Positions 607 to 32,000 of a stretch of 32,000 nt of DNA are shown piece after piece; within the stretch, counting starts at the first letter, position 1; every line of letters starts with the position of its first letter. The notes beneath the pieces were generated by a model. The model was not told where the DNA came from. It ran no database searches and was given only the letters and a program-made list of their open reading frames with translations. The position numbers were made by a program, and so were the translations under genes. The DNA is from Candidatus Electronema halotolerans (GTDB lineage Bacteria; Desulfobacterota; Desulfobulbia; Desulfobulbales; Desulfobulbaceae), in contig OW818675.1 in assembly GCA_942493095.1 (NCBI GenBank), forward strand, positions 570,001 to 602,000. Direction: 5' to 3'.

Positions 607-1979
607 ATCTGTTCATCAACTTCAGTTACATCATTGCGGCAATTCTGTTCATTTTCGGCCTGAAAATGCTCGGCTCGCCCGCCACAGCCCGGCGCGGCAA
701 TCAAATTTCCGCCTTGGGCATGCTGCTGGCGATTGTCGTCACCCTGATGAATTCCGGGCTGGATTACAAGTGGATCATCCTCGGCATCCTGATCGGCAGC
801 GCGATTGGCGTGTATGCGGCAGTCAAGGTGGAGATGACCGCCATGCCGGAGATGGTGGCTCTGTTCAACGGCTTTGGCGGCCTTGCCAGTCTGCTGCTGG
901 CATGGGCTGAGTATAATCAGGAGCCAGACATGCGGCTCTTTATCGCCATAGTCACCTTCCTTTCCGCCCTGATCGGCGGCGTGACCTTCAGCGGCTCCAT
1001 GGTGGCCTTTGGCAAGCTCTCCGGCAAGATCACCCAGAAGGCAGTGGTCTTCACTGGCCAGCACATTGTCAACGGAGCCATCCTTGCCGCCGTCCTGCTT
1101 GCCGCCGCCGTGTTCTGTACTGATCCCGGCTCAGGTCTTGGCTATGCCCTCTTCATCATCATCATCTTAATCTCTCTCGGCTTTGGCATCACCTCCACCA
1201 TTCCCATTGGCGGCGCAGACATGCCGGTGGTGATTTCGCTGCTCAACAGCTATTCCGGGCTGGCCGCCTGCGCTGCTGGTTTTGTCATCTCCAACAAGCT
1301 GCTGATCGTGGCAGGCGCATTGGTCGGGGCTTCCGGCATCATCCTGACCAACATCATGTGCAAGGCCATGAACCGCTCCTTGGCCAATGTCCTCTTTTCC
1401 GGCTTTGGCAGCACCATTGCCAAAAGCGGCGGCCACAGCGCGCAGGGTGAAGTCCGGCCCGCTTCGGCAGAGGATGTCTATTATATTCTGGAGGCGGCAG
1501 ACTCGGTGGTCTTTGTCCCTGGCTATGGTCTGGCTGTGGCGCAGGCCCAGCATGTGGTCCGCGAGCTGGGAGAGCTACTGGAGAAGAACGACACTGAAGT
1601 CAGCTACGCCATTCACCCGGTGGCAGGCCGGATGCCTGGTCACATGAATGTGCTGCTCGCTGAGGCCAATGTGCCTTATGATCAGCTTGTGGAAATGGAT
1701 GACATCAACCCGCGCATGGACAGTGTTGATGTCTGTGTGGTGATCGGCGCGAACGACGTGGTCAACCCGGCAGCCCTGAACGACAAGTCCAGTCCGATCT
1801 ATGGCATGCCGATCATTGAAACCCACCGGGCGCGGACGGTCATTGTCCTCAAACGCTCGATGAACCCCGGTTTTGCCGGCATTGAGAACGCTCTCTTTTT
1901 TGGCAGCAACACCCGCATGTATTTCGGCGATGCTAAAGAGTCGATTCAGGCTTTGCTGGCTCAGTTCAAGAGCAACTGA
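603..1979 (+). CDS. pntB: NAD(P) transhydrogenase beta subunit
   Basis: 458 aa with a GTG start overlapping the pntAB stop. The N-terminal half is multi-TM. The C-terminal NADP(H)-binding domain carries YAIHPVAGRMPGHMNVLLAEA and GANDVVNP. Confidence 0.93.
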   Translation: MNLFINFSYIIAAILFIFGLKMLGSPATARRGNQISALGMLLAIVVTLMNSGLDYKWIILGILIGSAIGVYAAVKVEMTAMPEMVALFNGFGGLASLLLAWAEYNQEPDMRLFIAIVTFLSALIGGVTFSGSMVAFGKLSGKITQKAVVFTGQHIVNGAILAAVLLAAAVFCTDPGSGLGYALFIIIILISLGFGITSTIPIGGADMPVVISLLNSYSGLAACAAGFVISNKLLIVAGALVGASGIILTNIMCKAMNRSLANVLFSGFGSTIAKSGGHSAQGEVRPASAEDVYYILEAADSVVFVPGYGLAVAQAQHVVRELGELLEKNDTEVSYAIHPVAGRMPGHMNVLLAEANVPYDQLVEMDDINPRMDSVDVCVVIGANDVVNPAALNDKSSPIYGMPIIETHRARTVIVLKRSMNPGFAGIENALFFGSNTRMYFGDAKESIQALLAQFKSN

Positions 1980-1985
1980 CTGACA

Positions 1986-2015
1986 GCGGCAGGGAGCGGA
2001 TTCCGCCCCTGCCGC
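1986..2015. terminator. GC-rich hairpin between convergent pntB and the sensor kinase (possible bidirectional terminator)
   Basis: A 9-bp stem, gcggcaggg (1986-1994) pairing with ccctgccgc (2007-2015), lies between two convergent stop codons. There is no clean U-run. Confidence 0.4.
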
Positions 2016-2024
2016 CCTTCCTTG

Positions 2025-5000
2025 TCAGTCGCCGCAGTCAAGAATGGCCTCGCGCCGGACCGCAGTCAGCACGCTCTCCTCAGACTCCTCCCCGCAGACT
2101 CCGGCCATCGCCATGCAGCGGGACATGACCTGATACATCTCTCTGGCATCAAACGGTTTGCCAATATGCTCGCTCATGCCTGCGGCCCGGCTCTTTTCCC
2201 GGTCCGCAGCCATGACATTGGCGGTCAGGGCGATGATGGGCAGATTCTTGTGCTGCGGCATCTTTTTGATGGCCGCACAGGCACTGTAGCCGTCCATGAC
2301 CGGCATCTGAATGTCCATCAGCACGCAGTCAAACGCCTCCTGCTCCAGTTTGGCCAGGGCCTCGGCCCCGTTGTTGGCCACAGTCACTTTGATGTCCTTG
2401 CGGCAGAGAAGGATTTTGGCCAGCTCCTGATTGAGCTGATTGTCCTCAACCAGCAGGACCTTTTTGCCATTCAGGCAGCACGACCCGACATCGCCTGTTT
2501 CACCCTGCCCGTGCTTCTCCTCCTGCCGGACTGCGGCAAAGGGCAGGACAAAATAAAATTGCGAGCCTTTGCCAGCCTCGCTTTCCAGCCAGATTCTCCC
2601 GCCCATCAGTTCAACAAGCTGCTTGCTGATCGACAGGCCAAGGCCGGTGCCGCCGAAACGCCGGGTGGTGGAGCTGTCTGCCTGACTGAAGGACTGAAAG
2701 AGCTTGCCCTGCTGCTCCGGGGTCATGCCAATGCCAGTGTCAGCCACGCAGAACTGGAGGACAATCCGGTTCCCGTCCTCTTCCTGCCGCAGCCGCTCCA
2801 CAGTGACATTCACTCCGCCCTCATGAGTGAATTTAACCGCGTTGTTGCCGAGATTGATCAGTATCTGGCCAAGGCGGAGCGGGTCGCCCTTGAGCCGGAC
2901 CGGCACGTCCGCAGCCACCTCAATATCCAAATCCAGTCCTTTCTCCTCAGCCCGCAGGCCGATTATATCAGCCAGATTGTCAAAAACCTTTTGCAGGCAG
3001 AAGACGATCTGCTCAATTTCCAGCTTGCCCGCCTCAATCTTGGAAAAGTCAAGGATGTCGTTGATGATGCCGAGCAGGGACTTGGCCGAATAATTAACTT
3101 TTTCAATATAGTTGCGCTGCTCCGGGCGGAGGTCGGTCTCCAAGGCCAGCTCGGACATGCCGATGATCGCATTCATCGGGGTGCGGATCTCGTGGCTCAT
3201 GTTGGCAAGGAACTCAGACTTGGCCTGACTGGCCGCTTCAGCCCGTTCTTGGGCCTCAGCCAGCTTTTGAGTGATGATCTCGTATTCAGTGATATCTTCC
3301 AGAATGCCGTCAATGGCGAGCAGCCGTCCGGCCTGATCCCGCACCGGATGCGAGGAGATGCGGATGGTGCGCAGGCTGCCGTCCGGGTGGATGAACTGCA
3401 TGTCATGCTGAACAAACTCGGTTTTGCCTTCGCGGATGCGGACAAAATGCAGTTCAGCCTGTTCCAAGGATTCAGCGAGCCAATTGATCTTTTCTGTCCA
3501 CGCGCTGCCGTCAGTCAGTGCCTCTTTGTCGCAGCCGAAAACAGAATGCACCCCGTCGCTGGCATAGGTCCATTTTTCGGTCTCAGGCTTCTGGCTGAAA
3601 ACAACAAACTTTTCGCCGATATCGTCCAAGAGCCGCCGATACTTTGCCTTGCTCTCCCGGAGCAGCCGCTCCTCCTCTTTCCGCTGGGTGATATCCTGCA
3701 CCACTTGGATGACCGACCCCTGGCCATCACCGCTGGTGAATTTCGTCGCAGCGGCTTCAAAAATTCTGCCGTCGTGGGTGTTTGGCAGATAACAGATGGT
3801 CTTCTCCTCCTGCAACGCCTCCAGCACCGGAGCGCGGCACCACGGATGATGCCCTTTTTCAAGCAGGCCGCAGCAGTCCGCGCCGGTCAGGTCGCCGAAC
3901 CAGTCCTGCATCACCTGATTCAGATAATGCACCCTGCTGCAATCATCAATGATGATCAGCCCAAGGCCAATCTTGGCCAAGGCGTTGATGACCGCCTCAG
4001 ATTGGGCCTTCTCATTGTTCAGCTCACGGTTGACCTGCTCCAGTTCGGCAAGTTTTGCCTGTAGTTCCGCAGTGCGCTCCCTGATCTGCTCTTCCAGATC
4101 AGTTTTGGCCTGGCGGACTGCGCCTTCAGCTTGGGCCAACTTCCAGGAACTGAAGCAGAGCACCAACGCCAGCAGCATGGCTGCCGCCACTGTTTTCTTG
4201 ATAATCGTGAAGCGGATTTCAGCAATTGCGTTCCGGCTGATATGGGAGACCACCTTCCAGAGACCGTGTCCTTCGTCTTTGCTCTCTGCATTTTTCTGCT
4301 GCATTTGCTGGGCAAAAACCGTGTTCCATGTCCACAGACCGTTTCTGCCCTGCTGATGCCCCTCTTTTTCCTGGAGTATTTCCTGCCAGATGCGCGGATC
4401 GCAGACCTCGCTGTCAGAGAGCGGCTTGGCCCCGGTCAGGAGCGGATCGTCCGCAGCAGTCAGGTTGGCCAGCCGCCAGCCCTCCTTGTTGACCACAGCC
4501 AGATGATCTTTGATTTTCAAGGTGACTTCGCTGAATTCATGGAGCAGCTCCTCAGCTGGCCAGCTGATAAGCAGGACCCCATGCCGTCCGCCCTGGCTGT
4601 CCAGCACTGGCGTGCCTGCCCGCAACGTCGGCGGCTGCGACAGACCATGCGGCTCCAGCTCGGCATCTGGCGGCGAAATAAACATGCTGTTCCGCTCCAG
4701 CCAGGCAGTCTCCATGAAATACAGCTTGTCCGCTCTGTTCTTGAGCTGTTCCTGCACCGCCACCTTTGGCCCGGCAATGGACCAGTCCAGCCGCAGCTGT
4801 TCCATGCCGGTGCTGTCTATCCAGCTGACCTGCTTGTAGCGGCCTCCCTTGCTGATGGCAAAGAGGGCGAAATCCTCAGCCAGCTTGGTCAAGTTTTCCT
4901 GATCAGGCGGAGCGGCCAGCCGCTCCATCAGTCCTTCGTGGGAAGCAAGCTGAAACATGTCAAAGCTGATCTCCCGCAGGCGGCTGGTCAGCAGGCCGGC

Positions 5001-5174
5001 ACCTTGGCCGACATGGAGCACTTCCTGATTTTTCAGGCTGTCCATCTCGCTTTCCAGCTCCAGGCTGGCGTAAAACCATGAACCAGCCAGCAAAACGAGC
5101 AGGGCTGGAATGACCCGCTTGAGAAAGAGCGCGTCATTGATCCATAAAACTGTCTGTTGGTATATCTCCTTCAT
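2025..5174 (-). CDS. hybrid sensor histidine kinase / response regulator (extracytoplasmic sensor domain, TM, coiled coil, PAS repeats, HisKA, HATPase, REC)
   Basis: H-box [15 protein letters not shown]-box [19 protein letters not shown], and a receiver domain with [10 protein letters not shown]...[11 protein letters not shown]...K. The ORF is open to 5219, but MKEIYQQ at 5174 is the more plausible start. Confidence 0.9.
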
Positions 5175-5295
5175 GGCTCTGTCAGGATGGCAAAGGAAGA
5201 TGAGGCGGCAGCAAAACACCTGCCAGCCGGGCAGGATGCCGCACTATGTCATGCTTTGGCGCGGCCCGTCAACATATTTTCCCTGCGCCCGGCAA

Positions 5296-5330
5296 TGAAA
5301 AGGGCAGAATGCTGTGCAGCATCCTGCCCT
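5296..5330 (-). terminator. rho-independent terminator downstream of acs
   Basis: A 14-bp stem (5301-5314 with 5317-5330, one mismatch) is followed on the minus strand by a UUUUCAUU tract. Confidence 0.55.
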
Positions 5331-5369
5331 GAACCGGCCCGCCATCAGCCGGAAATGCCCTGCAACCGC

Positions 5370-7352
<1,983 letters not shown>

Positions 7353-7670
7353 GATTTCCTCCTTTAAAACAGCAGTTGAATGATTGCGGATGAAGATCGC
7401 CCGCCCGGAGCGGCGGCAGGCTGTCAGACATGATGCAGGTAAGGTAAGCGAATTGCAGCTCTCTTGTCAAGCCGGAGCCGCCGATCAGCACACCGAGACA
7501 GCGTTTTTTTTTGCGAGCAGATGAATCATTGTCTCATCGGGGAAGAGCCGTCATCCTCTTTTCTTTAGCATGTTTGCCCGCAAAAAGCATCATTTTTTCG
7601 GGAGGAGCAGAGGCGGGAAGGATGCAAGGTTGACGGCGGCACTGCGGAAGGCGGAAAGGCTGGACAGACC

Positions 7671-8207
7671 TCAGGAAGACTCCTGCTCTTTGTTCTCCTG
7701 CAAACGCAGGTTGACTTCCTCCAACATGCCTTTCGCCCATTGCCGGGTCGTGCTCTCTGGCGGCAGTTCCAAGCGCATTATTTGGCGCAGGCATTGCTTC
7801 GCACCTCTGAGGTCGGCAAAGCCTTCATGCAAAATCTGGGCCTTGAGCAGCAGAGCCTCGGCATGTTCCGGCATCTGCTCCAAAATGAAATCCGCCGTCT
7901 GCAAGGCTTCGGCAAAGCGTTTCTCCGACTTCAAATACCTGCATTTGTTCAGTTCGCCTGCAAGCTGCTCTGTCAGCGTGGCTGATCTTCCTCCTCCACT
8001 GTACATTGATACGAAAAAATTTGCTGTCCAATTAATAACCAGCATTATTGGCAAAGGTAGAATAAAATTTATAGGGATCATTATCAAAATGAGCTTAAAG
8101 CTGCCAAACCAGTAAAGATATGCTATGCCAAGAAAAATAGAAGGATAGAGCATCCAGAGAAATATCCGCAGATATTGTGACCTTAGAAAGGAGTCAATGT
8201 CTTTCAT
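7671..8207 (-). CDS. hypothetical membrane protein with a TM-rich N-terminal half and a helical TPR-like C-terminal half
   Basis: The start is taken at MKDIDSF (ATG 8207), which overlaps the stop of the upstream ORF as ATGA. Hydrophobic helices are followed by an AEALLLKAQIL-type helical repeat. Confidence 0.55.
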   Translation of the reverse strand: MKDIDSFLRSQYLRIFLWMLYPSIFLGIAYLYWFGSFKLILIMIPINFILPLPIMLVINWTANFFVSMYSGGGRSATLTEQLAGELNKCRYLKSEKRFAEALQTADFILEQMPEHAEALLLKAQILHEGFADLRGAKQCLRQIMRLELPPESTTRQWAKGMLEEVNLRLQENKEQESS

Positions 8208-9166
8208 GCTGGCTCCAGAATGCCAAGAACTGTTTTCCTGTCCGATGATGGACAGATTTGCGCCGTCGCAGGCAGCAGATGCACGGTGAGGCGGCATCTG
8301 CCGTGCGCTGCTGCCGGATAATGCTGCTCAAGCAGAGCCTCCCATTCCTCTTGATTGAAAGAGGTCGGCAGATCATTGATCATCTCCGCTGCTGCTTGAC
8401 GGAATTTCTTCTGTCCGCCTGCAACATCATCACCTGCCGGACGCGCAGGCAATGACAGCGTCAGAATTTGCCGCGCTTCGGTGTTTTTCTCTTCAACGAG
8501 AGCGTCAAAAGCGTCATGGTCAGCAGTGATGAACAAATTGGAAAGCAGCGGGCCGCTGCTGGCGGCAAGCAGCTTCTGCCACGCCTTGAGCAACAGACGG
8601 CTGCGCCTGCTCTCATGCGGCCTGTCCCAGTCAGGTGAAGGTGAGGCGGCAGGATGCTCATCCCGCAGAGCCTCAAGCAGCTCCTGTTCCCGCAGCGTAA
8701 CCCGGCGCAGGCTCTGACGGATTTCCGCCTCCTCCTGCTCGACCAGTTCCCCCAGCTTCAGCACCAAGCGCGCCTGCCAGAGAGCAGCGGCCCGTTCCTG
8801 CTCGGCCTTGCTTTCGGTTGTGCCGCTGCGCGCCTGCCGTATCGCACTGATGATCGCACTTTTGCTTTCCGCTGCCTGAGATGCGCCGAAACCGGACAAG
8901 GCCAGCCCGGCATAGTCAGCAGGCCGCTGGCGCAGCTCCCTGACCATGCTGAGGAAACGCTCCCGGTCTTTGCCCAGCGGGGCCGGACAGTGAAAACGGA
9001 GCAGTCCTTGGGCGAGCAGCTCCTCAGCCAAAGGCGGCAGAGGTGCTGGCAGGTCGTTTTCCACAGGCGCAAGGTGGACAGTTTGGCGAAAAAGCTGTAC
9101 AACAGGGAACAGCATGTCGTCCTTGGGCCGGGTGTCCGGGAAAATATACGCGAGTTCCGCAAGCAT
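8204..9166 (-). CDS. hypothetical protein, Glu/Arg/Leu-rich with a coiled-coil-like centre
   Basis: A long minus-strand ORF is open to 9451, but the 5' part is antisense to a better-looking plus-strand membrane ORF. I therefore place the start at an internal Met (9166 or 9115). I recognise no family motif. Confidence 0.5.
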   Translation of the reverse strand: MLAELAYIFPDTRPKDDMLFPVVQLFRQTVHLAPVENDLPAPLPPLAEELLAQGLLRFHCPAPLGKDRERFLSMVRELRQRPADYAGLALSGFGASQAAESKSAIISAIRQARSGTTESKAEQERAAALWQARLVLKLGELVEQEEAEIRQSLRRVTLREQELLEALRDEHPAASPSPDWDRPHESRRSRLLLKAWQKLLAASSGPLLSNLFITADHDAFDALVEEKNTEARQILTLSLPARPAGDDVAGGQKKFRQAAAEMINDLPTSFNQEEWEALLEQHYPAAAHGRCRLTVHLLPATAQICPSSDRKTVLGILEPA

Positions 9167-23386: not shown

Positions 23387-23397
23387 AAAAACGCGGT

Positions 23398-23578
23398 GAA
23401 TTCAAATTCCAAGTGCAACTTTTTTGGTTGCAAGAAAAGGCAGTTACGGGAGTGTCACAACTTTGCTTTTGTCGCTAACTAAGAGAAAATAATTGAAAAT
23501 TTACATGAAGTATTCAAAGTGCCAGCCAACCTATGCTTTTTGGATAACCAAAAAAAGTTGCACTTGCGAGTTGAATCC
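23398..23578. mobile_element. MITE-like non-coding element of about 181 bp with imperfect terminal inverted repeats of about 32 bp
   Basis: The left arm (23398-23429) is gaattcaaattccaagtgcaacTTTTTTggtt. The right arm (23546-23578) is aaccAAAAAAAgttgcacttgcgagttgaatcc. They share a 10-bp perfect core plus a T6/A7 run and ggtt/aacc. The interior is AT-rich and non-coding. Confidence 0.4.
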
Positions 23579-24454
23579 ACACTTCTGGGCGGCCTCCATC
23601 AGCGCGTCGCAATGCTCAGGATTGGCCATCTTCAGCATCCGGTAGCGGTTCTCATTCAGGGCGTAGTCGGCAAACTTGATGCTCGGCTCCTTGGAGTCGA
23701 TGATCAGCGGATTCTTGCCTTCCTCCTCCAGGAGCGGATTGTAGCGGTAGAGCGGCCAGTGTCCGCACTCAACCGCCTTCTTCTGCTGGTCAAGGCCCTT
23801 GGTCATGTCAATGCCGTGATTGATGCAGTGGGCATAGGCGATGATGATCGACGGGCCGTCGTATGCTTCCGCCTCGTTGATCGCCTTGACAAGCTGCTGC
23901 GGGTTCGCGCCCAGAGCGACCCTGGCCACGTAGATATTGCCGTAGGTGGAGAAGATCATGCCCATGTCCTTCTTGGCCATCTTCTTGCCGCCAGCAGCGA
24001 ACTGAGCGACCGCCGCACGCGGGGTTGACTTGGACATCTGGCCGCCGGTGTTGGAGTAAACCTTGGTGTCGACCAGCACGTTGATGTTCTCGCCCGATGC
24101 CAGAACATGATCCAGGCCGCCGTAGCCGATGTCGTAGGCCCAGCCGTCGCCGCCAAAGCACCAGACCGATTTCTTGACTAAATAATCAGCCACCGGCAGG
24201 AGGCGGGAGGCAGTGACGCTCTTGCTGCTGGACAGGGCCTTTTTCAGCTCCTCGACCCTGCCGCGCTGGGCCTCAATCTCGTCCTGGGTCTTCTGGCTGG
24301 CGTTGAGCAGCGAATCAGCAAGCTCCTGATTCACCATGCCTTCCGCCACAGCTGAGTGCAGCAGCTCGGCAGCCTGCATGGCCAGCTTGTTCACGGCCTG
24401 CCTCATGCCGAGGCCATACTCGGCGTTGTCCTCGAACAGGGAGTTGGACCAAGC
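23531..24454 (-). pseudogene. nifJ: 5'-truncated duplicate of the pyruvate:ferredoxin oxidoreductase 3' end (TPP-binding domain fragment)
   Basis: It is about 97% identical in nucleotides to 31040-31914. Homology stops abruptly at 24454, 17 nt from the vapC stop. One codon is lost inside the conserved NVLVLDTEVYSNTGGQ segment (here NVLVDTKVYSNTGGQ). The last 16 codons are replaced by sequence from the MITE-like repeat. Confidence 0.85.
23583..24454 (-). repeat. direct repeat copy A (872 bp) of the nifJ 3' region
   Basis: Manual alignment to 31040-31914 gives about 24 substitutions plus one 3-nt indel. The copies are identical over 23583-23725, and 24126-24454 has a single mismatch. Confidence 0.9.
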
Positions 24455-24470
24455 GACATGAAGGAAGGAA

Positions 24471-24863
24471 TTATTTCAGCAGCTTCACATGGCTGTACGC
24501 AAGAATCTTTCTGTCCAAGGTCAGCAACGGGCAGTCATGAATACGGGCGGTGGCGACAATGATCTGATCAGCCGGGTCGCGATGAAACTCTCCGGGCAGC
24601 CGGGTTGATTCCACAGCAATGCGGGGCGACAGTTCAAAAAGCTGAATGCCGGGATACTGCAAAGCCTGATGTATCCAGTCGGAAACATCCATGTCAAAGT
24701 GGAGCCGCTTCAGTTCAAACAGCTTGGCGATCTCCCAGCAGGAGATGACGCTCACGCCCAAGCCGTCCGCTTCATGTTCGATGATCTGGCGTTGGACAGA
24801 TTCAGGCAATTGCTGTTCATCAAGAACCCACTTGACCCAGATATGCGTGTCAAGCAGGATCAT
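24471..24863 (-). CDS. vapC: PIN-domain ribonuclease toxin (VapC family)
   Basis: The start is taken at MILLDTHIW, overlapping the antitoxin stop as ATGA. Acidic PIN residues are present (LLDTH, CWEI, DPADQIIVATA, TLD). Confidence 0.85.
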   Translation of the reverse strand: MILLDTHIWVKWVLDEQQLPESVQRQIIEHEADGLGVSVISCWEIAKLFELKRLHFDMDVSDWIHQALQYPGIQLFELSPRIAVESTRLPGEFHRDPADQIIVATARIHDCPLLTLDRKILAYSHVKLLK

Positions 24864-25102
24864 TGCAGGGCCTCCCAATCGTCAACTGCCACTGGTTCTG
24901 TCGGATCAATGTATGTGAAAGGACGACCTCGCAGCGGATAACGCTCCTGTTCTTTCTCCGGCCTGCCTTGAGATGCTGGGTTAAGCAGGACTGTTTCCCG
25001 GAATATCCGAATTAGCTCAAGAAGATTTGGGAAATATTCGCTTGGGATTGCTTTGACTTCTTTAAGCAGAGCTTGCTGACAAGCAATATCTTGATTTGAC
25101 AT
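24860..25102 (-). CDS. putative antitoxin partner of VapC
   Basis: An 80-aa ORF translationally coupled to the PIN gene. Its C-terminal ...DDWEAL tail is similar to that of the antitoxin at 30602-30829. Confidence 0.6.
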   Translation of the reverse strand: MSNQDIACQQALLKEVKAIPSEYFPNLLELIRIFRETVLLNPASQGRPEKEQERYPLRGRPFTYIDPTEPVAVDDWEALQ

Positions 25103-25156: not shown

Positions 25157-26141
25157 TTACTGATTGTCAAGACCCGTATGATTGCATTCCGATTTTTTAA
25201 ACAATTCGGGATGAGTTTTCCTCCACTTGTCAAGAGCCGCCTCCGGCGTGATATGGCCGAGATTTCTTTGAGTAATATTAAAAAATTGTAGATATGAAGA
25301 TACTGCATCAAAGCCTCTTCAAGCTGCTGGGCCGGATTCAAAGCGGGTCTGCTGAACAATTTCTTGAATTCTGCCGTTAAAGCGTTCAACCATGCCGTTT
25401 GTCTGCGGTTTTCTCGGCTTGATCAAGCGATGCTCAATGCCGTGCTCCGCGCATTCCTGATCGAAGAGATGGTTTCCAGTCGGCTTCCGTTCGCCTGTCG
25501 GACAGAAACGGTCGGTGAATTCCTTGCCGTTATCCGTGAGAATCCTTGAAATAAAAAATGGAGCCTTCTTGACGAGATTCTTTAAAAAAGAACGGGCTTC
25601 CTCCGCTTTCTTCGAGGCGTGAATTTCCATATAAACCCATCTGGTCGCCCTGTCAACAGCAACGAACAGATACTTCCTGCTTTCCTCATCCGGCATCTGC
25701 GGGAGGTGCTTTGATGTCGGCATGAATAAAGCCAGGTTCATAATCCTTGAATGTTTTTAGAGATTTCCCCCGCATCTCCTCTTCAGGGATCAAATTTTTA
25801 AGGTTCGAGACTCCATGCCGCCTAAGACAGCGGTCAAGTGCAGAGCGCGACATCTTAGGACATAATAATTTCCGCACAACAACAAGGAGATCGTCGATTG
25901 GAAGCAGCAGTGATGTCCGCAATTCAATCACAATCGCCTCTTGGAAAGATGTGAGGCTCGTGTTCAAATTATGTGGCGTGTGCGAATAATCTTCAACAGT
26001 TTCAAGGTGTTTCCACTTGCGGACTGTGTCCCTGCTGATGCCATATTTCGCGGCGAGCTTCCGTTCAGAAAGCGTTGACTGCTGAATTTCCCGACGGATT
26101 GCAGGGGTCGTCCGCGCTCTTTTGTGCAGGGTGATGTTCAT
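25157..26141 (-). pseudogene. IS481-family transposase, disrupted by at least three frameshifts
   Basis: N-terminal HTH segment MNITLHKRARTTPAIRREI... then ...PGFIHADIK, followed by a frame break and LPQMPDEESRKYLFVAVDRATRW...TDNGKEF...RKPQTNGMVERFNG. A second break precedes QQLEEALMQYLHIYN. A third break precedes ITQRNLGHITPEAALDKW...LDNQ, whose stop lies in the terminal repeat. Confidence 0.75.
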
Positions 26142-26172
26142 GATGACAAACCGGGTTGTTCGTGTTCTGACA
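25165..26172 (-). mobile_element. IS481-family insertion sequence remnant (about 1.0 kb, boundaries approximate)
   Basis: Terminal sequences attgtcaAGACCCG (25164 inward) and attgtcaGAACACG (26173 inward, reverse complement) form an imperfect inverted repeat. The interior encodes an IS481-type DDE transposase. Confidence 0.65.
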
Positions 26173-26566
26173 ATATCTCGCTGATCCGTTCCCAAGCTCG
26201 AAACAACGGCCAGCTTCTTTCTGGTATATTATCATGCGGGGCTTGATAGCTTATCTGCGCATCCTCCACGCTGACAGGCCGCCCTGCTTTGACTCTTGCC
26301 GCAACAATCAGCGCGTATTCCTGCGCCGCCGCTGCATCAAACGGGAGATTTCTGCCGTCAAACAGGGAAAATATTTCTTTGGCGGCTTGCAGCAATTCAT
26401 TTTTCCGTCGTCCTTCCGGCAGCAGGGCAAGGCCAAGTTCAATTTCCGCCTGCGTCACGGCACTGATGAAGAGCTGTTCAGCGGGCTGCGCATCCAGCCA
26501 TTCGACAACTGCCGGAAATGGCGATGGACGCATCAGCTCCGAAAGGATATTGGTGTCAAGGAGCAT
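26138..26566 (-). CDS. PIN-domain toxin of the FitB/VapC type, probably degenerate at the C-terminus and reading into the IS end
   Basis: MLLDTNILSELMRP...ISAVTQAEIELG...VSVEDAQI matches FitB-like PIN toxins. The expected C-terminal T-R-(D/N)..DF acidic motif is not recognisable. The last 11 or so codons lie inside the IS481 terminus. Confidence 0.7.
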   Translation of the reverse strand: MLLDTNILSELMRPSPFPAVVEWLDAQPAEQLFISAVTQAEIELGLALLPEGRRKNELLQAAKEIFSLFDGRNLPFDAAAAQEYALIVAARVKAGRPVSVEDAQISYQAPHDNIPERSWPLFRAWERISEILSEHEQPGLSS

Positions 26567-26801
26567 CGGAATCTTGCAGCAAGCCTGTTAATCTTGGCAA
26601 AGACCGGCTGGGAAGAGGAAGTTCAATGCCGCCGATTTCTTGGAACCGCTGCTGAATGCGGGTGCCGATTCCAGATTGAACATTGAGGGATTTTTCCAGA
26701 ATGTTTTTCACTTCATCCTCTACAGTGCGGCGATGACGAGCGGCCTGCGTCTTCAGCCGTGAACCGACTGATTCTTCAATTGCGATAGTCAATATTTCCA
26801 T
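26556..26801 (-). CDS. FitA-like ribbon-helix-helix antitoxin
   Basis: The start is taken at MEILTIAIEESVGSRLKTQAARHRRTVEDEVKNIL (RHH pattern). The tail QEIGGIELPLPSR resembles FitA QEIGGVELEDV. It overlaps the toxin start by 11 nt. Confidence 0.7.
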   Translation of the reverse strand: MEILTIAIEESVGSRLKTQAARHRRTVEDEVKNILEKSLNVQSGIGTRIQQRFQEIGGIELPLPSRSLPRLTGLLQDSDAP

Positions 26802-27023
26802 TATTGCAATCTCTCCCATACATCTAAAACTGTTGGTTCTTTCTGTAAGAAAAAAAGCTGCCTCCCGTTTATGAGAGAGCTGCGGTTGATTTGCTGGCTT
26901 CAAGTATTATAGCAACCGGGGAGATTGAGGGCAACTGAGGGAGTGCGAAAGAGCGGAAGAAGAGGCTGTTGCGGCGAGTTTCAGCAACAAAAAAAGCTGA
27001 ACTTCCAGCAGCGGAGGCCCAGC

Positions 27024-28316
27024 TTACCGTGCCTTTATCTTCATGCTTCGCTCCATATAATTAAATGCCATCCAGAAATTTGCTTGTGTCCATAACAATG
27101 GAGTGGTATCACCAGGAATATACTGACCATGCTCCAAATAATAAAGTTCCGGGCATTTAAATCCTCCGAAGCGACTGTCTTCCGGCGTAAGCTGGCTTAA
27201 TGAGCGGTTGAAATAGTCTATTTGCAGTTGCAGGAAACGCTTGTCGTGTGTTTTCTGATAGTTCATCCCATAGATGATAGACATGACAGGATCAAAAATA
27301 CACCATTGCGCTTCTTGACCAGATTGCAATAAACTATCACGTTCAGCAATATTATCACTCACATCAATTGTTCTTTCCTCTTCTTTTACTTTCTCTTTGT
27401 AATCAGCAGACCAATAGGAATCGCCTAAATAGCGGCGGATACCATAGTCTCCTTGTAAATGCGTTCTGACATCATTGAGGATTTGATCGGCAATTTCTTC
27501 GCTGACGACATTCAGAGGGAATATCAGAAATAATAAAGCTGCGTCATAACGGCGGTACTTTTCAGGCTGGATACATTCGGCTGGCAAGATGGCATTTAAC
27601 GCTTCCTGGCCTTTGGCAATCAATCCAGTTACGAACTCGCTGGTAATAATTTTATCCTTACAATGAATAGAATATCTGTTTTCGCCGATTATTTTATTTA
27701 ATTCGATTAATGCGGCAACCACCACGCCAATACTGGATGCTTCAACTTTTCGCACTTCTTCCCAATGACCGCTGTCTTCATCTTGCCAGTAAGCGATTTT
27801 ATCGAAATACAAGGCAAACAAGGCGAGCAATTCTGTTTGCGCTGCGTTGAGTTCGGCAATGGCGTGTTCATTGTAGAGTTTGCAGAACAGCCAGAGAAAA
27901 TATCCAAGCGCGTCATTTTCAGCGTGCGCCCATTTTTGCTTGATTTCGGACAGATCATTGCCGTTGAAGCGAATATGAGGGCGATTCATCGGGTCGTTAA
28001 AATCTAACTCACCGGCAATAATTTTTTCAAATCGCCATTGGTGCTTGATGAAATAGTCAGTGAATGCGGTGATGTTTTTGATGGCGATGTCAGTTTTGCC
28101 ATTCAGATAATGGGCGTAGGCGATATGAATATTGTCACGTATCCAAACGTTATTATAGCCGGTATATTCAGATTCAGTTTGCAAATTGGCTGCTGGAAAG
28201 AGACCATTGTCTAACAATGGAAACAAAAAAGAATCTTTCCCGGTTAAGAGATCGAAAATATCCTTCAAGTTTGATGAAGAATATTCTCTTGCAACTATGC
28301 TGTAGTTGATCGACAT
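27024..28316 (-). CDS. glycoside hydrolase family 15-like (alpha/alpha)6-barrel protein, catalytic domain only
   Basis: About 430 aa and AT-rich. Motifs VWIRDN, HAENDALGYFLW, DEDSGHWEEV, GIRRYLGDSYW and PLLWTQANF are typical of the GH15 / phosphorylase-kinase alpha-beta domain. I see no signal peptide and no N-terminal beta-sandwich domain. The ATG at 28316 is preferred over the TTG at 28325. Confidence 0.8.
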   Translation of the reverse strand: MSINYSIVAREYSSSNLKDIFDLLTGKDSFLFPLLDNGLFPAANLQTESEYTGYNNVWIRDNIHIAYAHYLNGKTDIAIKNITAFTDYFIKHQWRFEKIIAGELDFNDPMNRPHIRFNGNDLSEIKQKWAHAENDALGYFLWLFCKLYNEHAIAELNAAQTELLALFALYFDKIAYWQDEDSGHWEEVRKVEASSIGVVVAALIELNKIIGENRYSIHCKDKIITSEFVTGLIAKGQEALNAILPAECIQPEKYRRYDAALLFLIFPLNVVSEEIADQILNDVRTHLQGDYGIRRYLGDSYWSADYKEKVKEEERTIDVSDNIAERDSLLQSGQEAQWCIFDPVMSIIYGMNYQKTHDKRFLQLQIDYFNRSLSQLTPEDSRFGGFKCPELYYLEHGQYIPGDTTPLLWTQANFWMAFNYMERSMKIKAR

Positions 28317-28894
28317 TGCGCACAACCTTTCTTTATCTTTCCAGAAGCATCAAAAAGAACATCTAAATGTTTTCTGTAAGAAAACTCAGCTAAATAGATA
28401 ACAATCAGTGAGATTATTCCAACCAATAAAAAAATAATTCCTTTCATTATGCTTGGGTTAGTTGCACGCAAAAAAGGAACTAAACTATAACCCATTAAGA
28501 TGATAGACATTGCCATGCTTGACCAGTACAAGACAAAATCTTCAAGATTAAACAAATATCTACCTCCACCATGCGAATTACTGCACAATTCACCAACATA
28601 TTTTTCATAGGGGTCGTTGCTGTAATTTAAAAAACATGCAACGACTAATATACGAATATTATTATGATAACAAAGCAAGTCAACGTAAGCGCAAACAAAA
28701 GGGATAATACAAAGAATATAGTCTGGCTCCATTGCCCATCCAGTAGTATTGCCATTAAAACCTAATCCAATTGCACCCAATGAAGCTATTGCTATTAGCT
28801 TATATTTCAAGAAATCCATTCTTGCTTTTTGAGACTCTACAATTTCTTCCCGCAAGGATGTAATCTCATCATTTATATTTATCTCTTGAGACAT
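28295..28894 (-). CDS. hypothetical 4-TM membrane protein with an N-terminal coiled-coil-like segment
   Basis: 199 aa and AT-rich. NDEITSLREEIVESQKARMDFLKYK is followed by four hydrophobic helices. The 3' end overlaps the GH15-like gene start by at least 22 nt. Confidence 0.6.
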   Translation of the reverse strand: MSQEININDEITSLREEIVESQKARMDFLKYKLIAIASLGAIGLGFNGNTTGWAMEPDYILCIIPFVCAYVDLLCYHNNIRILVVACFLNYSNDPYEKYVGELCSNSHGGGRYLFNLEDFVLYWSSMAMSIILMGYSLVPFLRATNPSIMKGIIFLLVGIISLIVIYLAEFSYRKHLDVLFDASGKIKKGCAQCRSTTA

Positions 28895-28936
28895 ATCTCT
28901 ACCTCATCCTTTTGCATGTCTTTTGTATTTCTTCAA

Positions 28937-29458
28937 TTAGTTAAGTTTCCCTTTCGCAATACTCTTTACAGCTTCCTTCATATCACTGGGTGTACCACGA
29001 AGAACATCACCAACTTTCCCGGTTAATTCACCCAATATCGCACTTGCTATCCCCATAGAATTATTTTTTAGTTCTTCATCGCTAACGGTACCATCTTTAT
29101 ACAATTCACATATTGATATTACTATTAATCCGCTTACGGTATGAAGAAGTACAGTTGCAGCGCAATTTGCAACTACCCCAATCCCAGGAATATATCCAAT
29201 AACTACATTGGCTATACTAGCTCCAGCCGCAGCACCAGGTATTACGCCAATAAATGTTGACATCCCGGAAAGTGACCTGTACCCATAAACATCAACTATC
29301 TCTTCACACATATTAATAGTAACACCTGTTAATAACGCTCCTGACAAAATAGGCCCTGCGAATGGTATTGCAGTAGTCAACGCCATTGGAACTGCAATTG
29401 CTATAGCATCTGTAACCTTGCCCCAAGCTGAGTCAAATGTCGACATGATCAACTCCAT
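28937..29458 (-). CDS. small Gly/Ala-rich membrane protein, DUF697-like by motif recollection
   Basis: AIPFAGPILSGALLTGVTINMCEEIVDVYG and YIPGIGVVANCAATVLLHTVSG resemble the two conserved blocks of DUF697 (YcjF-type) domains. The second Met (29446) has the better GGAG Shine-Dalgarno sequence. Confidence 0.55.
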   Translation of the reverse strand: MELIMSTFDSAWGKVTDAIAIAVPMALTTAIPFAGPILSGALLTGVTINMCEEIVDVYGYRSLSGMSTFIGVIPGAAAGASIANVVIGYIPGIGVVANCAATVLLHTVSGLIVISICELYKDGTVSDEELKNNSMGIASAILGELTGKVGDVLRGTPSDMKEAVKSIAKGKLN

Positions 29459-29510
29459 TCATCATATTGATTAAATAGAACAAACTTATAGATACAGATA
29501 CGCTAATAAT

Positions 29511-29963
29511 CTACTCACCACCCCCGCTCTCCTTCTTCTCCTTCTTATGCCCGGGCTTGAAGGCCCCCATGAAATCAAGAAGGAACTGCCCTTCCTCGGC
29601 AATCTCAGGATACGCCTCGGCAAAGTCGCGGATGCGGCGGGCCGTGTCGTACATGGCCTCGATGCACCTGTCGGTGGCCTGAAGCCGCTGATGATAGACG
29701 GACAGATGCAGCTTGTCCAGCAGATGCTCGGCAGGCTCAAGGCGGAGGACTTCAGCCAAGCCCTGCTCCAGTCCGGCGAGAACAGCGGCATCAAGCCTGA
29801 GCGTCTCTCCGTGCTTCTGGACAAAGCGGGCAGCATCGTCAGCCACGGCCTGATAGCCGGGCAGGGATTTGTGCAGGGACTGGATATCGTTCGCATCCAG
29901 TGGGGGCAGGATTTCCACGTTCAACAGCTCGGCGACCTTTTCGAGATCAGTCTTTTCCGGCAT
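29511..29963 (-). CDS. hypothetical protein, 150 aa, GC-rich and helical, with a Lys/Glu/Gly tail
   Basis: A strong AAGGAGG Shine-Dalgarno sequence lies upstream of the ATG at 29963. I recognise no family motif. Confidence 0.55.
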   Translation of the reverse strand: MPEKTDLEKVAELLNVEILPPLDANDIQSLHKSLPGYQAVADDAARFVQKHGETLRLDAAVLAGLEQGLAEVLRLEPAEHLLDKLHLSVYHQRLQATDRCIEAMYDTARRIRDFAEAYPEIAEEGQFLLDFMGAFKPGHKKEKKESGGGE

Positions 29964-30118
29964 GGCGGGCCTCCTTTGAGGGAATTTGATGAGGATAGCG
30001 CAAATTAGCGCGGCAAAAGCACGCTGTCAAGAAAAAAATATGCGGTGCGCGGCAGCGAAGCAAAATCTTCGCTCTGCGATCAAAGAGGAGAATTGGATGA
30101 GGAAATAGAAAAAATATA

Positions 30119-30186
30119 CCTGCTCATAGGAAAAGCCTATGAGGAAACAGACGCGGCCTATTTGCTCATCCCTTTTTCCTATGAGC
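30119..30186. repeat. perfect 16-bp inverted repeat with nested sub-hairpins, function unknown
   Basis: ctgctcataggaaaag (30119-30134) pairs with cttttcctatgagcag (30171-30186). The left arm also pairs locally with cctatgag at 30135-30142. The repeat lies between the vapC stop and the promoter region of the 150-aa gene. Confidence 0.6.
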
Positions 30187-30212
30187 AGATAGGCGGAGAC
30201 TGTGAAGAGAGG

Positions 30213-30605
30213 TCAGCCGCTGATCAGCAGTTCGTCCAGTTCGCTGTACGCTGAAAACCAGCCGTCAAGGCTGATCAGTTTGCTTTTGCTGACAATCGCT
30301 GTGGCGATGATGAATCTGTCCGCAGGGTCTTTATGATGATACGGAAGCTGGCCCGCAAGCTGCGCTGCCGCCGCGCTGACCGGGAGGACCTGCACATCGG
30401 AGCCGCGCAAAGCCTCCTTCAGCCATTGGTCAATTGGCAGGGGCAGCTCAATCCGGCGGAACCGCTCCAGCAGGACAACCTCCCAGCAGGAAATGGCGGA
30501 GACGGCCAAGGCATCGGCAGTTTCAATCAAATCAATGAGATTCTGCGGCAGCGGATCATCCGGCAGCAGCCAGCGCAGCCAGATGTGGGTATCCATCAGG
30601 ATCAT
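30213..30605 (-). CDS. vapC: PIN-domain ribonuclease toxin (VapC family), paralogue of 24471-24863
   Basis: MILMDTHIWLRW..., CWEV, DPADRFIIATA and SLD are present. The ATGA overlaps the upstream antitoxin stop. Confidence 0.85.
   Translation of the reverse strand: MILMDTHIWLRWLLPDDPLPQNLIDLIETADALAVSAISCWEVVLLERFRRIELPLPIDQWLKEALRGSDVQVLPVSAAAAQLAGQLPYHHKDPADRFIIATAIVSKSKLISLDGWFSAYSELDELLISG

Positions 30606-30978: not shown

Positions 30979-32000
<1,022 letters not shown>

Follow-up and report, generated by a model that had tools for sequence, protein, structure and literature searches.

A three-gene cassette within a toxin-antitoxin-rich island

The stretch of DNA analysed here, hereafter the window, comprises 32,000 nt from Candidatus Electronema halotolerans, a cable bacterium (OW818675.1, positions 570,001 to 602,000). 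It carries three genes, designated P1, P2 and P3, inside an island that has a direct repeat of the PFOR 3' region at either end. The features are given below with the basis of the assignments in brackets.

23582..24454, minus strand: copy A of the repeat, a duplicated PFOR 3' fragment, ~96% identical to copy B and missing the last ~22 codons
24455..31038, no strand: enclosing island of ~6.6 kb (repeats; PIN, FitA and rve assignments; synteny with sister locus L005)
24471-24878, 26138-26566 and 30213-30605, minus strand: three PIN domains of island genes (Pfam)
26556-26903, minus strand: FitA-like RHH (Pfam)
26996..27009, minus strand: terminator-like hairpin GCTGGAAGTTCAGC followed by a T-run, 15 nt past the P3 stop
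27024..29458, no strand: low-GC block holding P1, P2 and P3 (GC 0.391; sister locus L005 likewise)
27024..28316, minus strand: P3, stand-alone cytoplasmic GH15 protein of the PhK alpha/beta D1 type, predicted (alpha/alpha)6 barrel, 430 aa (ORF, Pfam, fold)
28295..28894, minus strand: P2, putative membrane partner of the GH15 enzyme, 199 aa (ORF, homologues, fusions, model)
28937..29446, minus strand: P1, Gly/Ala-rich small membrane protein, 169 aa (ORF, RBS, homologue lengths)
31039..31914, minus strand: repeat copy B, within the intact PFOR gene

The intact PFOR gene reads in frame from beyond position 32000 to a stop at 30979. From high to low coordinates on the minus strand, the island contains a VapB-like/PIN pair, U150, P1-P2-P3, a FitA-like/PIN pair, an IS remnant (rve/HTH) and a second VapB-like/PIN pair. 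The genes flanking the cassette have the type II toxin-antitoxin layout, in which a PIN toxin is preceded by a small antitoxin gene, and the two VapB-like small ORFs upstream of PIN genes gave no match in Pfam. A first-pass annotation of this DNA had described toxin-antitoxin modules and an IS481 remnant around the cassette. The FitA-like RHH/PIN pair, the two further PIN genes, each with a small ORF upstream, and an rve/HTH transposase remnant were confirmed, IS481 being the candidate family of the remnant.

The same annotation had read the cassette as three co-oriented, operon-like ORFs with a 42-nt gap and an overlap of at least 22 nt, and this arrangement was borne out on the minus strand at the coordinates given. 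P1 and P2 are spaced by 42 nt, and P2 overlaps P3 by 22 nt as counted from the P3 ATG or by 31 nt from an alternative TTG start at 28325, which would extend P3 to 433 aa. An alternative ATG at 29458 would give P1 a length of 173 aa; the ATG at 29446 is the more likely start because GGAG lies 8 nt upstream and every homologue is 169 aa long. The cassette transcript probably ends at the terminator-like hairpin.

The composition of the block is foreign, as had been proposed, with a GC content of 0.391 in comparison to 0.53 window-wide and 0.55-0.62 in the near flanks. Of the sharp GC shift claimed for both edges, the right one, at about 29500, stood, whereas the left edge proved softer, with GC 0.45-0.46 at 26.65-27.1 kb and low GC also in the IS-remnant region at 24.85-26.0 kb. 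At locus L005 of the sister genome, low GC is limited to P1-P2-P3 as well. Comparison with L005 gave dN/dS values of 0.10 for P1, 0.17 for P2 and 0.09 for P3, and this range of 0.09-0.17 indicates purifying selection across all three genes. The three-gene block is a real, conserved and uncharacterised module.

A PhK-type GH15 protein and its putative membrane partner

P3 matches the Pfam GH15 family (PF00723) with 27.6 bits against a cut-off of 22, the match covering residues 40-295, and nearly all of its listed homologues carry PF00723. More than 2668 homologues were found at 54-89% identity, identity between phyla being 54-69%, and the P3 tree tracks host lineages at a coarse level. The family is nevertheless patchy, occurring in at least 467 of 185,579 species representatives. 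In 16 sequences from across phyla, Y54, W58, R60, D61, H184-W185-E186-E187, R295 and E335-A-Q-W338 are invariant. H184-W185-E186-E187 forms the general-acid region, and its W-E and that of PhK alpha (chain residues ~184-185) are aligned; the latter is where catalytic Glu185 has been located (PMC10978961). E335-A-Q-W338 (region S5) holds the candidate general base, by its invariance and by its expected spacing from the acid; the corresponding residues would be E335 of KfIG and E371 of PhK alpha.

P3 begins ~40 residues before the Pfam match, and neither an N-terminal beta-sandwich domain nor a hydrophobic N-terminus or signal peptide was found in it. Together with the Pfam match and the H-W-E-E segment, this upholds the earlier description of a stand-alone cytoplasmic GH15 protein with a WEE motif. 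Single-domain precedents for a barrel without the beta-sandwich are KfIG and PhK D1. The fold was tested on an AF2 model of the natural fusion P0012 (67% identity with P3) rather than on P3 itself. The GH15 part of that model has pLDDT values mostly of 85-97, and its top Foldseek matches are KfIG (5Z3A, E 1e-6) and glucoamylase 1LF6; by this model, P3 would fold as an (alpha/alpha)6 barrel.

KfIG, the isomaltose glucohydrolase of Kribbella flavida (GH15, EC 3.2.1.205, 5Z3A-F), is the best structural match, with a TM-score of 0.68 on the target, and is itself a GH15 barrel of one domain, lacking the N-domain, for which the catalytic-residue mutants Y48F, E178A and E335A are in the PDB. It differs from P3 in its sequence, being only 13-14% identical with a chain of 371-372 residues, and we take it to be a soluble enzyme of dextran/isomaltose catabolism without a membrane partner.

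By sequence, the only PDB matches of P3 are PhK alpha and beta, with the single sequence and with the family profile alike (profile E 1.9e-9 and 6.2e-5, respectively), and source databases name P3 homologues 'phosphorylase kinase alpha/beta subunit'. Domain D1 of these proteins (human PHKA1/PHKB; 8JFK) shares with P3 the aligned W-E motif, a similar barrel size and the lack of a beta-sandwich ahead of the barrel. D1, however, is the N-terminal part of regulatory subunits of ~1100-1200 aa in a kinase holoenzyme, whereas P3 is a separate protein of 430 aa in which every catalytic motif is invariant, and its pairing is with a bacterial membrane protein. As a further likeness, PhK subunits are lipid-modified (farnesylated); D1 of PhK beta has lost its catalytic residues, and D1 of human PhK alpha, although its active site is intact, did not act on maltose, isomaltose or glycogen in a 2024 cryo-EM study (PMC10978961). 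On the strength of its conserved motifs, P3 would be a catalytically competent, inverting alpha-glucosidase-type GH15 enzyme.

P2, previously described as a 199-aa protein with four TM helices, indeed has four hydrophobic helices, preceded at the N-terminus by a charged helix that is conserved. We found 37 homologues, and in the alignment an intramembrane motif of P65, C68, Y70, D72, C75 and R81 is invariant, with H77 nearly so. P2 has no match in Pfam, NCBIfam or PADLOC, its AF2 model (pLDDT 82) has no fold match in the PDB or BFVD, and no similarity to channels or transporters of known structure was detectable. Across the P2 family, the mean number of K+R residues is 5.2 at the N-terminus, 1.0 in loop1, 3.7 in loop2, 1.2 in loop3 and 4.7 at the C-terminus; by the positive-inside rule, P2 is therefore N-in/C-in, and a GH15 domain fused to it is therefore cytoplasmic. 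The invariant polar residues within the bilayer suggest that P2 may do more than anchor.

The conserved unit is mainly the P2-P3 pair or fusion, not the trio. The pairing was observed at ~24 loci in at least six phyla. Among 80 reference-genome loci, 17 have a P2-like ORF directly upstream of P3 or fused to it (Desulfobacterota, Gallionella, Fibrobacterota, Opitutaceae, Acidobacteriota and cyanobacteria). Natural P2-P3 fusion proteins number six, in addition to fused genes at two genome loci, L064 and L079. When P2 homologues were looked up independently, a GH15 gene was the next gene downstream of six of the seven, and a GH28 glycosidase gene that of the seventh. Other P3 homologues pair, equally obligately, with 'domain X' proteins, whose N-terminus is 2-TM, TIR or EAD11 (the last at L090); an X gene is followed by P3 in 9/9 independent contigs, and at the loci examined the P2 and X partners are mutually exclusive.

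These data also bear on whether the barrel could be a non-catalytic glycan sensor, which would bind alpha-glucan or an oligosaccharide without turnover and control P2, as a channel or transporter-like protein, or P1. A non-catalytic, regulatory role has been proposed for PhK alpha/beta, whose D1 domains are the closest characterised relatives, regulatory and with no hydrolase activity detected (PMC10978961). The polar intramembrane motif of P2 would fit a function of its own, and the P2-P3 fusions suggest tight allosteric coupling. However, all GH15 catalytic residues are invariant across distant phyla, as selection for catalysis would give, and P2 resembles no channel or transporter of known structure, so we regard a sensor as unlikely.

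P1 has three close homologues, each of 169 aa, and an exhaustive search placed 45 clusters in its family. It had been likened to DUF697 (PF05128; the E. coli YcjF family), a likeness that holds for some of its relatives below threshold and fails for P1 itself, which gave no DUF697 match in the Pfam scan. Relatives of P1 reach 15-17 bits where scores are listed, against a cut-off of 27.7, and in a bulk Pfam scan 4 of 22 matched DUF697, all sub-threshold (best E 4.8e-5, given without a bit score). The P1 family shares with DUF697 a hydrophobic, Gly/Ala-rich core of ~130 aa, and one relative has a GTPase-plus-C-terminal-domain architecture, presumably typical of DUF697 proteins. P1-like ORFs lie upstream of a partner-GH15 pair in 8 loci, a minority of all loci, with both partner types. 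The trio had been proposed as a conserved neighbourhood: a P1-like gene, a membrane partner and GH15 do recur together in unrelated contigs (L087, L098, L092/94, L093/97 and L096), but only ~3 of ~24 P2-type loci have a P1-like gene. As judged from these comparisons, P1 is probably an accessory, optional third gene that resembles DUF697 below the Pfam threshold.

A distant bacterial relative of P3 is E. coli PkgA, an uncharacterised PhK-like GH15 protein (27% identity over 86% of P3). Its gene is found at one edge of an island, the type III secretion island ETT2, on the side of tRNA-Gly, and adjoins a small toxin-like membrane gene (GhoT/OrtT family). Export of PkgA is probable, since its N-terminus, in contrast to that of P3, is signal or lipoprotein-like; it also differs in having 541 aa and no P2, X or P1 partner. 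One speculation makes it a T3SS effector that acts on the glycogen of the host (PMC3977695). PkgA, with this N-terminus and its place at the end of ETT2, could lend support to the earlier suggestion that the cassette is an envelope- or glycan-targeting effector or membrane-stress module whose GH15 protein acts on envelope or extracellular glycans, as could the fact that two of the three products are membrane proteins and the loose tie of the DUF697 member YcjF to psp membrane-stress operons (PMC3041696). This suggestion conflicts with the topology of P2, which is N-in/C-in and puts the GH15 domain in the cytoplasm. Since P3 also has no signal peptide and the relation of P1 to DUF697 lies below the Pfam threshold, we consider an envelope-targeting role highly improbable.

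Carbohydrate and conflict genes around P3 homologues

In PADLOC-DB v2, P1, P2, P3 and U150 had no match at E <= 0.1, and NCBIfam gave nothing for P1, P2 or P3; no described defence system corresponded to the cassette, in agreement with the first-pass annotation. The enrichment of such neighbourhoods in defence genes, which it had proposed to look for, was not supported: 36 PADLOC families were matched around 15 P2-P3 loci (148 ORFs) versus 194 around 14 P2-negative control loci (146 ORFs), in a crude comparison of family counts only, with ORFs called mechanically. No neighbour family recurs around the P2-P3 pair, and the pair was not found in phage and viral collections.

Within the window, no carbohydrate gene lies close to the cassette, as had been noted. 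Elsewhere, P3 homologues do occur in alpha-glucan loci, a setting that the annotation had counted against its idea should it prove the main one. The most frequent non-partner neighbour of P3 homologues is a pullulanase-type GH13 gene, present at 10/80 genome loci and often accompanied by a second GH13; it also occurs near P2-type pairs at L033 and L087, and MFS transporters adjoin L026, L040 and L047.

Genes of another kind lie near some relatives: a closely linked Macro-domain protein upstream at L082, a TIR protein downstream at L055, an Mrr-NACHT STAND protein 41 nt upstream of the P2-P3 fusion at L064, HipA-coupling and ABC-3C-type genes near L003, and recombinase, Panacea and E2/E1 genes around L089. 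They would fit a conflict or abortive-infection-type module, in which the GH15 protein senses or cleaves an invader glycan or nucleotide-derived signal, P2, 2-TM-X or TIR-X serves as a swappable executioner, and P1 is an accessory. Like the constant parts of CBASS, Pycsar, Thoeris and EAD-coupled NTPase systems, the P3 family is combined with alternative 4-TM, 2-TM, TIR or EAD11-tagged partners, and this swapping of partners resembles the effector swapping of abortive-infection systems; the NACHT protein next to one fusion gene is a further likeness. The constancy of the X-P3 order in all nine contigs, the many filamentous or multicellular hosts of P3 homologues and the position of the window cassette, with its foreign GC, amid three toxin-antitoxin pairs and an IS remnant are consistent with such a role.

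Against this stand the empty PADLOC and NCBIfam searches, PADLOC matches that do not exceed those of the controls, the lack of a recurring neighbour family, and the absence of the pair from phage and viral collections. The GH13 and MFS neighbours point instead to carbohydrate metabolism, and for a conflict gene P3 shows unusually high conservation and a tree that coarsely follows taxonomy. No such glycosidase is mentioned in the eLife survey of EAD-linked conflict systems in multicellular bacteria (Kaur et al. 2020, PMC7159879), and the systems compared here are not known to include a GH15 component. The window cassette encodes no TIR, EAD, NTPase or signal-generating cyclase; of the NTPase core and EAD-tagged effectors that characterise EAD-coupled and STAND NTPase systems, examples appear only in relatives (Mrr-NACHT at L064 and EAD11-X at L090). 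Current evidence does not show the cassette to be a defence system. A conflict role nevertheless keeps some probability in view of the TIR, EAD11, Macro and NACHT proteins that accompany relatives, and we regard it as possible but probably not the correct explanation.

A wider proposal, which we hold doubtful, is that the PhK-type GH15 protein is the constant part of an undescribed conflict-system family common in filamentous or multicellular bacteria, where it would recognise or cleave a glycosidic molecule, with P2 (here), 2-TM-X, TIR-X and EAD11-X as interchangeable executioners and a small DUF697-like membrane protein as an option; the ancestor of PhK alpha/beta would then be a sensor-effector module of bacteria instead of an ordinary metabolic enzyme.

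A proposed membrane-docked alpha-glucoside hydrolase

The reading that we prefer, with a probability of about one half, sees in the cassette an alpha-glucoside hydrolase module that is docked to the membrane, faces the cytoplasm and is cargo of the toxin-antitoxin-rich island at the PFOR 3' end. P3 would be the alpha-glucosidase-type enzyme and P2 its dedicated integral-membrane subunit, the two probably being translationally coupled through the 22-nt overlap here and being one polypeptide elsewhere. In the predicted complex, P2, with both termini in the cytoplasm, would hold P3 at the inner face of the membrane, and it might also present or conduct a substrate or product, or regulate the enzyme; P1 would be an optional third subunit. 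The likely substrate is an alpha-glucoside from a storage alpha-glucan or a membrane-associated glucoside; like the hydrolytic activity, the complex and the physiological role, this substrate is inferred. The module probably entered Electronema by horizontal transfer, within the toxin-antitoxin-rich island inserted at the PFOR 3' end.

Several findings weigh against a docked hydrolase. D1 of PhK alpha, the characterised domain nearest to P3, did not act on the sugars tried (PMC10978961), and the family is patchy, here lying in a mobile, toxin-antitoxin-rich island with no carbohydrate gene nearby. A purely metabolic role would not predict the TIR, EAD11, Macro and Mrr-NACHT links, and docking leaves the strongly conserved intramembrane polar motif of P2 unexplained.

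The function of the glucoamylase-like domain of PhK alpha/beta has been a standing question since its recognition in 2003. At least two protein families without a name, P2 and X, emerge from our analysis, which also indicates that the bacterial stand-alone relatives of this PhK-type GH15 domain are not solitary enzymes but have dedicated partners of the P2 or X type. Natural fusions such as P0012 and the P1-P2-P3 operon of Electronema are small, tractable systems for the substrate and logic of this GH15 clade. If the links to TIR, EAD11 and NACHT proteins prove functional, a glycosidase-based module would be added to bacterial conflict systems.

Cassette genes and the enclosing island

We confirmed the three co-located minus-strand ORFs of the AT-rich block, P1, P2 and P3; their GC content is 39.1%, lower than that of the whole window (53%) and of the nearby flanks (55-62%). 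P2 and P3 each have a 100% identical counterpart among the proteins of Candidatus Electronema halotolerans, a cable bacterium. The low-GC block has a sharp right edge and a softer left one. This observation from the first-pass annotation is therefore confirmed, while its interpretation is only partly supported. The features of the region are as follows.

29458/29446..28937, minus strand: P1, small membrane protein, 173 aa from the first ATG or 169 aa from the ATG at 29446
28894..28295, minus strand: P2, 199-aa ORF encoding a membrane protein with four TM helices
28316..27024, minus strand: P3, stand-alone GH15 barrel, 430 aa from the ATG or 433 aa from a TTG at 28325
27009-26996, minus strand: terminator-like hairpin and T-run, 15 nt past the P3 stop
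29511-29963, minus strand: U150, 150-aa soluble protein upstream of P1
24455-31038: island of ~6.6 kb enclosing the cassette, bracketed by direct repeats from a pyruvate:ferredoxin oxidoreductase (PFOR) gene
31039-31914: PFOR repeat copy B, within an intact PFOR gene that runs in frame off the window end
23582-24454: PFOR repeat copy A, a fragment without the last ~22 codons

The ATG at 29446 is the more likely start of P1, judging from a GGAG 8 nt upstream and a length of 169 aa that matches all close homologues. A 42-nt gap separates P1 from P2, the P2 and P3 ORFs share 22 nt, and the gene that follows P3 has a good promoter-like site beyond the hairpin. Scans of the window returned no Rfam matches and no tRNA genes. 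ORFs are numerous on both strands of positions 1-23000, the longest encoding 1064 aa.

Comparison with L005, the corresponding locus of a sister Electronema-type genome, gave dN/dS values of 0.10 (P1), 0.17 (P2) and 0.09 (P3), and these low values indicate that all three are functional genes. We rejected the view that P2 and P3 are a frameshifted fusion, since the sister genome has the overlapping split too, separate genes predominate in the family and the dN/dS values are low. The dS of P1, P2 and P3 was 1.0-1.36 (window 27024-29446 versus L005 8882-11296), two to three times that of flanking genes in the same genome pair (U150, 0.38; VapC, 0.56), possibly through recombination that replaced the cassette with a diverged allele or through a composition-driven difference in rate.

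The direct repeats, ~875 nt long and ~96% identical, are copies of the 3' portion of the nifJ-like PFOR gene, and their arrangement suggests an island that duplicated its target on insertion at the 3' end of PFOR; neither an integrase nor a tRNA gene accompanies it. Also encoded in the island are three toxin-antitoxin pairs of the PIN type, one of which includes a FitA-like RHH protein, and an rve/HTH transposase remnant. L005, with 79% nucleotide identity, keeps the order PFOR, VapBC, U150, P1, P2, P3, VapBC and distal PFOR copy, the last reduced to a 137-nt remnant; neither FitAB nor the IS remnant is present, and the low-GC signal is likewise limited to P1-P2-P3. U150, which has no Pfam, NCBIfam or PADLOC match, was rejected as a cassette member: it is GC-rich and thus outside the low-GC block, was found only in Electronema-type loci among those searched, and has a dS unlike that of the cassette. 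A promoter-like site lies inside it (29719-29691). Two inverted repeats, one between U150 and the VapC gene (30117-30191; 34-nt arms, 7 nt apart) and one just beyond the copy-A end of the PFOR repeat (23396-23580; 47-nt arms, 74% complementary), could be operators, terminators or recombination sites.

P3 and its membrane partner P2

[quoted passage not shown] Its family consists of stand-alone proteins of ~430 aa, with more than 2668 matches, relatives in at least 467 reference species, and 54-69% identity across Desulfobacterota, Gallionella, cyanobacteria, Acidobacteriota, Planctomycetota, CPR bacteria and others; the tree tracks host lineages at a coarse level. P3 was absent from phage records, and its "plasmid" occurrences were only mis-filed E. 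coli chromosomes. The GH15 signature residues of P3 are invariant (Y54, W58-x-R60-D61, H184-W-E-E187, R295 and E335-A-Q-W338). The best fold matches, obtained with a model of a natural P2-P3 fusion relative, were the isomaltose glucohydrolase of Kribbella flavida (5Z3A) and then a bacterial glucoamylase (1LF6); because 5Z3A is a single-domain GH15 enzyme, the lack of an N-terminal beta-sandwich in P3 has precedent. The related D1 domain of human PhK alpha has an intact site, yet no activity was seen on maltose, isomaltose or glycogen (PMC10978961). By this precedent P3 might act as a non-catalytic sensor, a role that we consider quite improbable.

Among named bacterial proteins the nearest to P3 is PkgA of E. 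coli, at only 27% identity. This GH15 protein (L102:6638-8260, NZ_CP062824.1) is 541 aa long; its N-terminus resembles a signal or lipoprotein sequence, and it is probably exported. The gene, carried by 3945 of the 5426 complete E. coli genomes, sits at one edge of the ETT2 type III secretion island, with tRNA-Gly on one side and a small toxin gene of the GhoT/OrtT family on the other.

P2 matched nothing in Pfam, NCBIfam or PADLOC, had no significant fold match in BFVD (viral), and had none by sequence profile against the PDB. A fold search of the PDB was likewise without significant result; its best matches, alpha-pore-forming toxins (E 0.064, TM-scores 0.2-0.3), were too weak to be taken as evidence. 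The family conserves a charged N-terminal helix (L14, E17, S21, R25 and K32) and, within the second hydrophobic helix, an invariant polar motif (P65, C68, Y70, D72, C75 and R81, with H77 nearly so). By the positive-inside rule, applied to 33 homologues, both termini of P2 face the cytoplasm, which places the GH15 domain there too. This topology is at odds with the earlier suggestion of an envelope-targeting system, which we now regard as highly improbable.

A P2-like ORF directly precedes P3, or forms one gene with it, in 17 of 80 reference loci, and these 17 represent at least six phyla. Fusions account for six database proteins of 535-637 aa and two further genes, in loci L064 and L079. In the reverse look-up, GH15 was found downstream of six of seven P2 homologues; for the seventh, P0149 (L085:6001-6567), the next gene, 216 nt further on and set among GH2 genes, encodes a GH28 glycosidase instead (L085:6783-8153), so P2-like proteins may partner other glycoside hydrolases. 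We found no recurrent neighbour family beyond the P2-P3 pair, no P2 in viral contigs and no P2-P3 pair in viral and phage collections. In Microcystis and Pleurocapsa, a GH15 gene is followed by a 430-500-aa protein with four TM helices (L049:6249-7544, L070:3600-4964, L071:4019-5311, L072:3910-5424 and L078:3101-4540), whose N-terminal helix and first TM segment are weakly P2-like (profile E 1e-5 to 1e-6).

Domain X and P1

Upstream of other P3 homologues lies a gene for a protein with an unnamed domain of ~220 aa, domain X, which has the motifs NAVQFLWAD, GCNIAIR, RIVNGxxQHWxY and FxGDGN. The following loci encode it directly upstream of a PhK-type GH15 gene.

L021:291-1517
L057:8715-9905
L061:2607-3650
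L028:985-1851
L090-L099

The N-terminus of the X protein varies: it is TIR (L021, L057), two TM helices (L061, L092-L098, L095), EAD11 (L090), another soluble domain (L091) or almost absent (L028). A metagenome search with domain X alone recovered a P3 homologue directly after it in all nine contigs that had downstream sequence; P2 and X are thus two alternative kinds of dedicated partner for this GH15 clade, and no locus examined had both. Domain X might correspond to the N-terminal beta-sandwich of GH15 enzymes, detached into a separate protein. The dedicated partners of this GH15 enzyme had not been described before, and our literature search found no paper tying the PhK-type GH15 clade to membrane partners or conflict systems.

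An indexed search with P1 gave only three near-identical homologues, and phmmer over 80 genome loci placed it only in L005. The resulting view of P1 as an orphan, and of the trio as genus-specific, was overturned by an exhaustive search, which yielded 45 clusters sharing a core of ~130 aa, and by a profile of that core. The DUF697 likeness first proposed for P1 is reflected in some relatives, whose DUF697 matches fall below the Pfam threshold (one has an N-terminal GTPase domain), but P1 itself has no such match. The profile detected P1-like ORFs in 8 of about 100 loci, each directly upstream of the membrane partner. The P2-type loci were L005 and L087; in the latter, the gene immediately ahead of the P2-GH15 pair (4736-5860) joins a P1-like (DUF697-like) N-terminal region to an acyl-carrier (PP-binding) domain at the C-terminus, and is itself closely preceded by a GH13 pullulanase-like gene. 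Among X-type loci, L098 holds a true P1 homologue (40% identity over 124 aa, E 4e-25), and L092/94, L093/97 and L096 hold more distant family members. The three-gene arrangement is thus real and recurs with both partner types, but only a minority of loci have it, about 3 of about 24 among those of the P2 type.

Genomic neighbourhoods and proposed function

Apart from the partner genes, the commonest neighbour of P3 homologues is a pullulanase-type GH13 gene (10 of 80 loci, in one cyanobacterial sub-clade), usually with a second GH13; this type also lies close to P2-type pairs in L033 and L087. Tight neighbours further include MFS transporters, a Macro-domain protein (L082), a TIR protein (L055) and, in L064, a 1669-aa Mrr-nuclease and NACHT STAND protein whose gene (1917-6926) precedes, by 41 nt and in the same orientation, that of a 637-aa P2-GH15 fusion (6967-8880). 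These links of relatives to TIR, EAD11, Macro and NACHT, together with a partner swapping that resembles effector swapping, speak for the cassette as a conflict system. PADLOC reported nothing in the cassette itself, and the expected enrichment of defence genes around its relatives did not appear: 148 ORFs around 15 P2-P3 loci matched 36 PADLOC families, versus 194 families for 146 ORFs around 14 control loci, so that the controls scored at least as high. We consider a conflict system unlikely.

We favour, with a probability of roughly 0.5, a cassette that encodes a membrane-docked, cytoplasm-facing alpha-glucoside hydrolase. P2 would serve as the dedicated membrane subunit of P3, P1 would be an optional accessory, and the cassette would have been gained horizontally as island cargo; the hydrolase activity, its substrate and a physical P2-P3 complex are predictions of this model. 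The main value of the cassette would be as a tractable system for working out what the PhK-type glucoamylase-like domain does.
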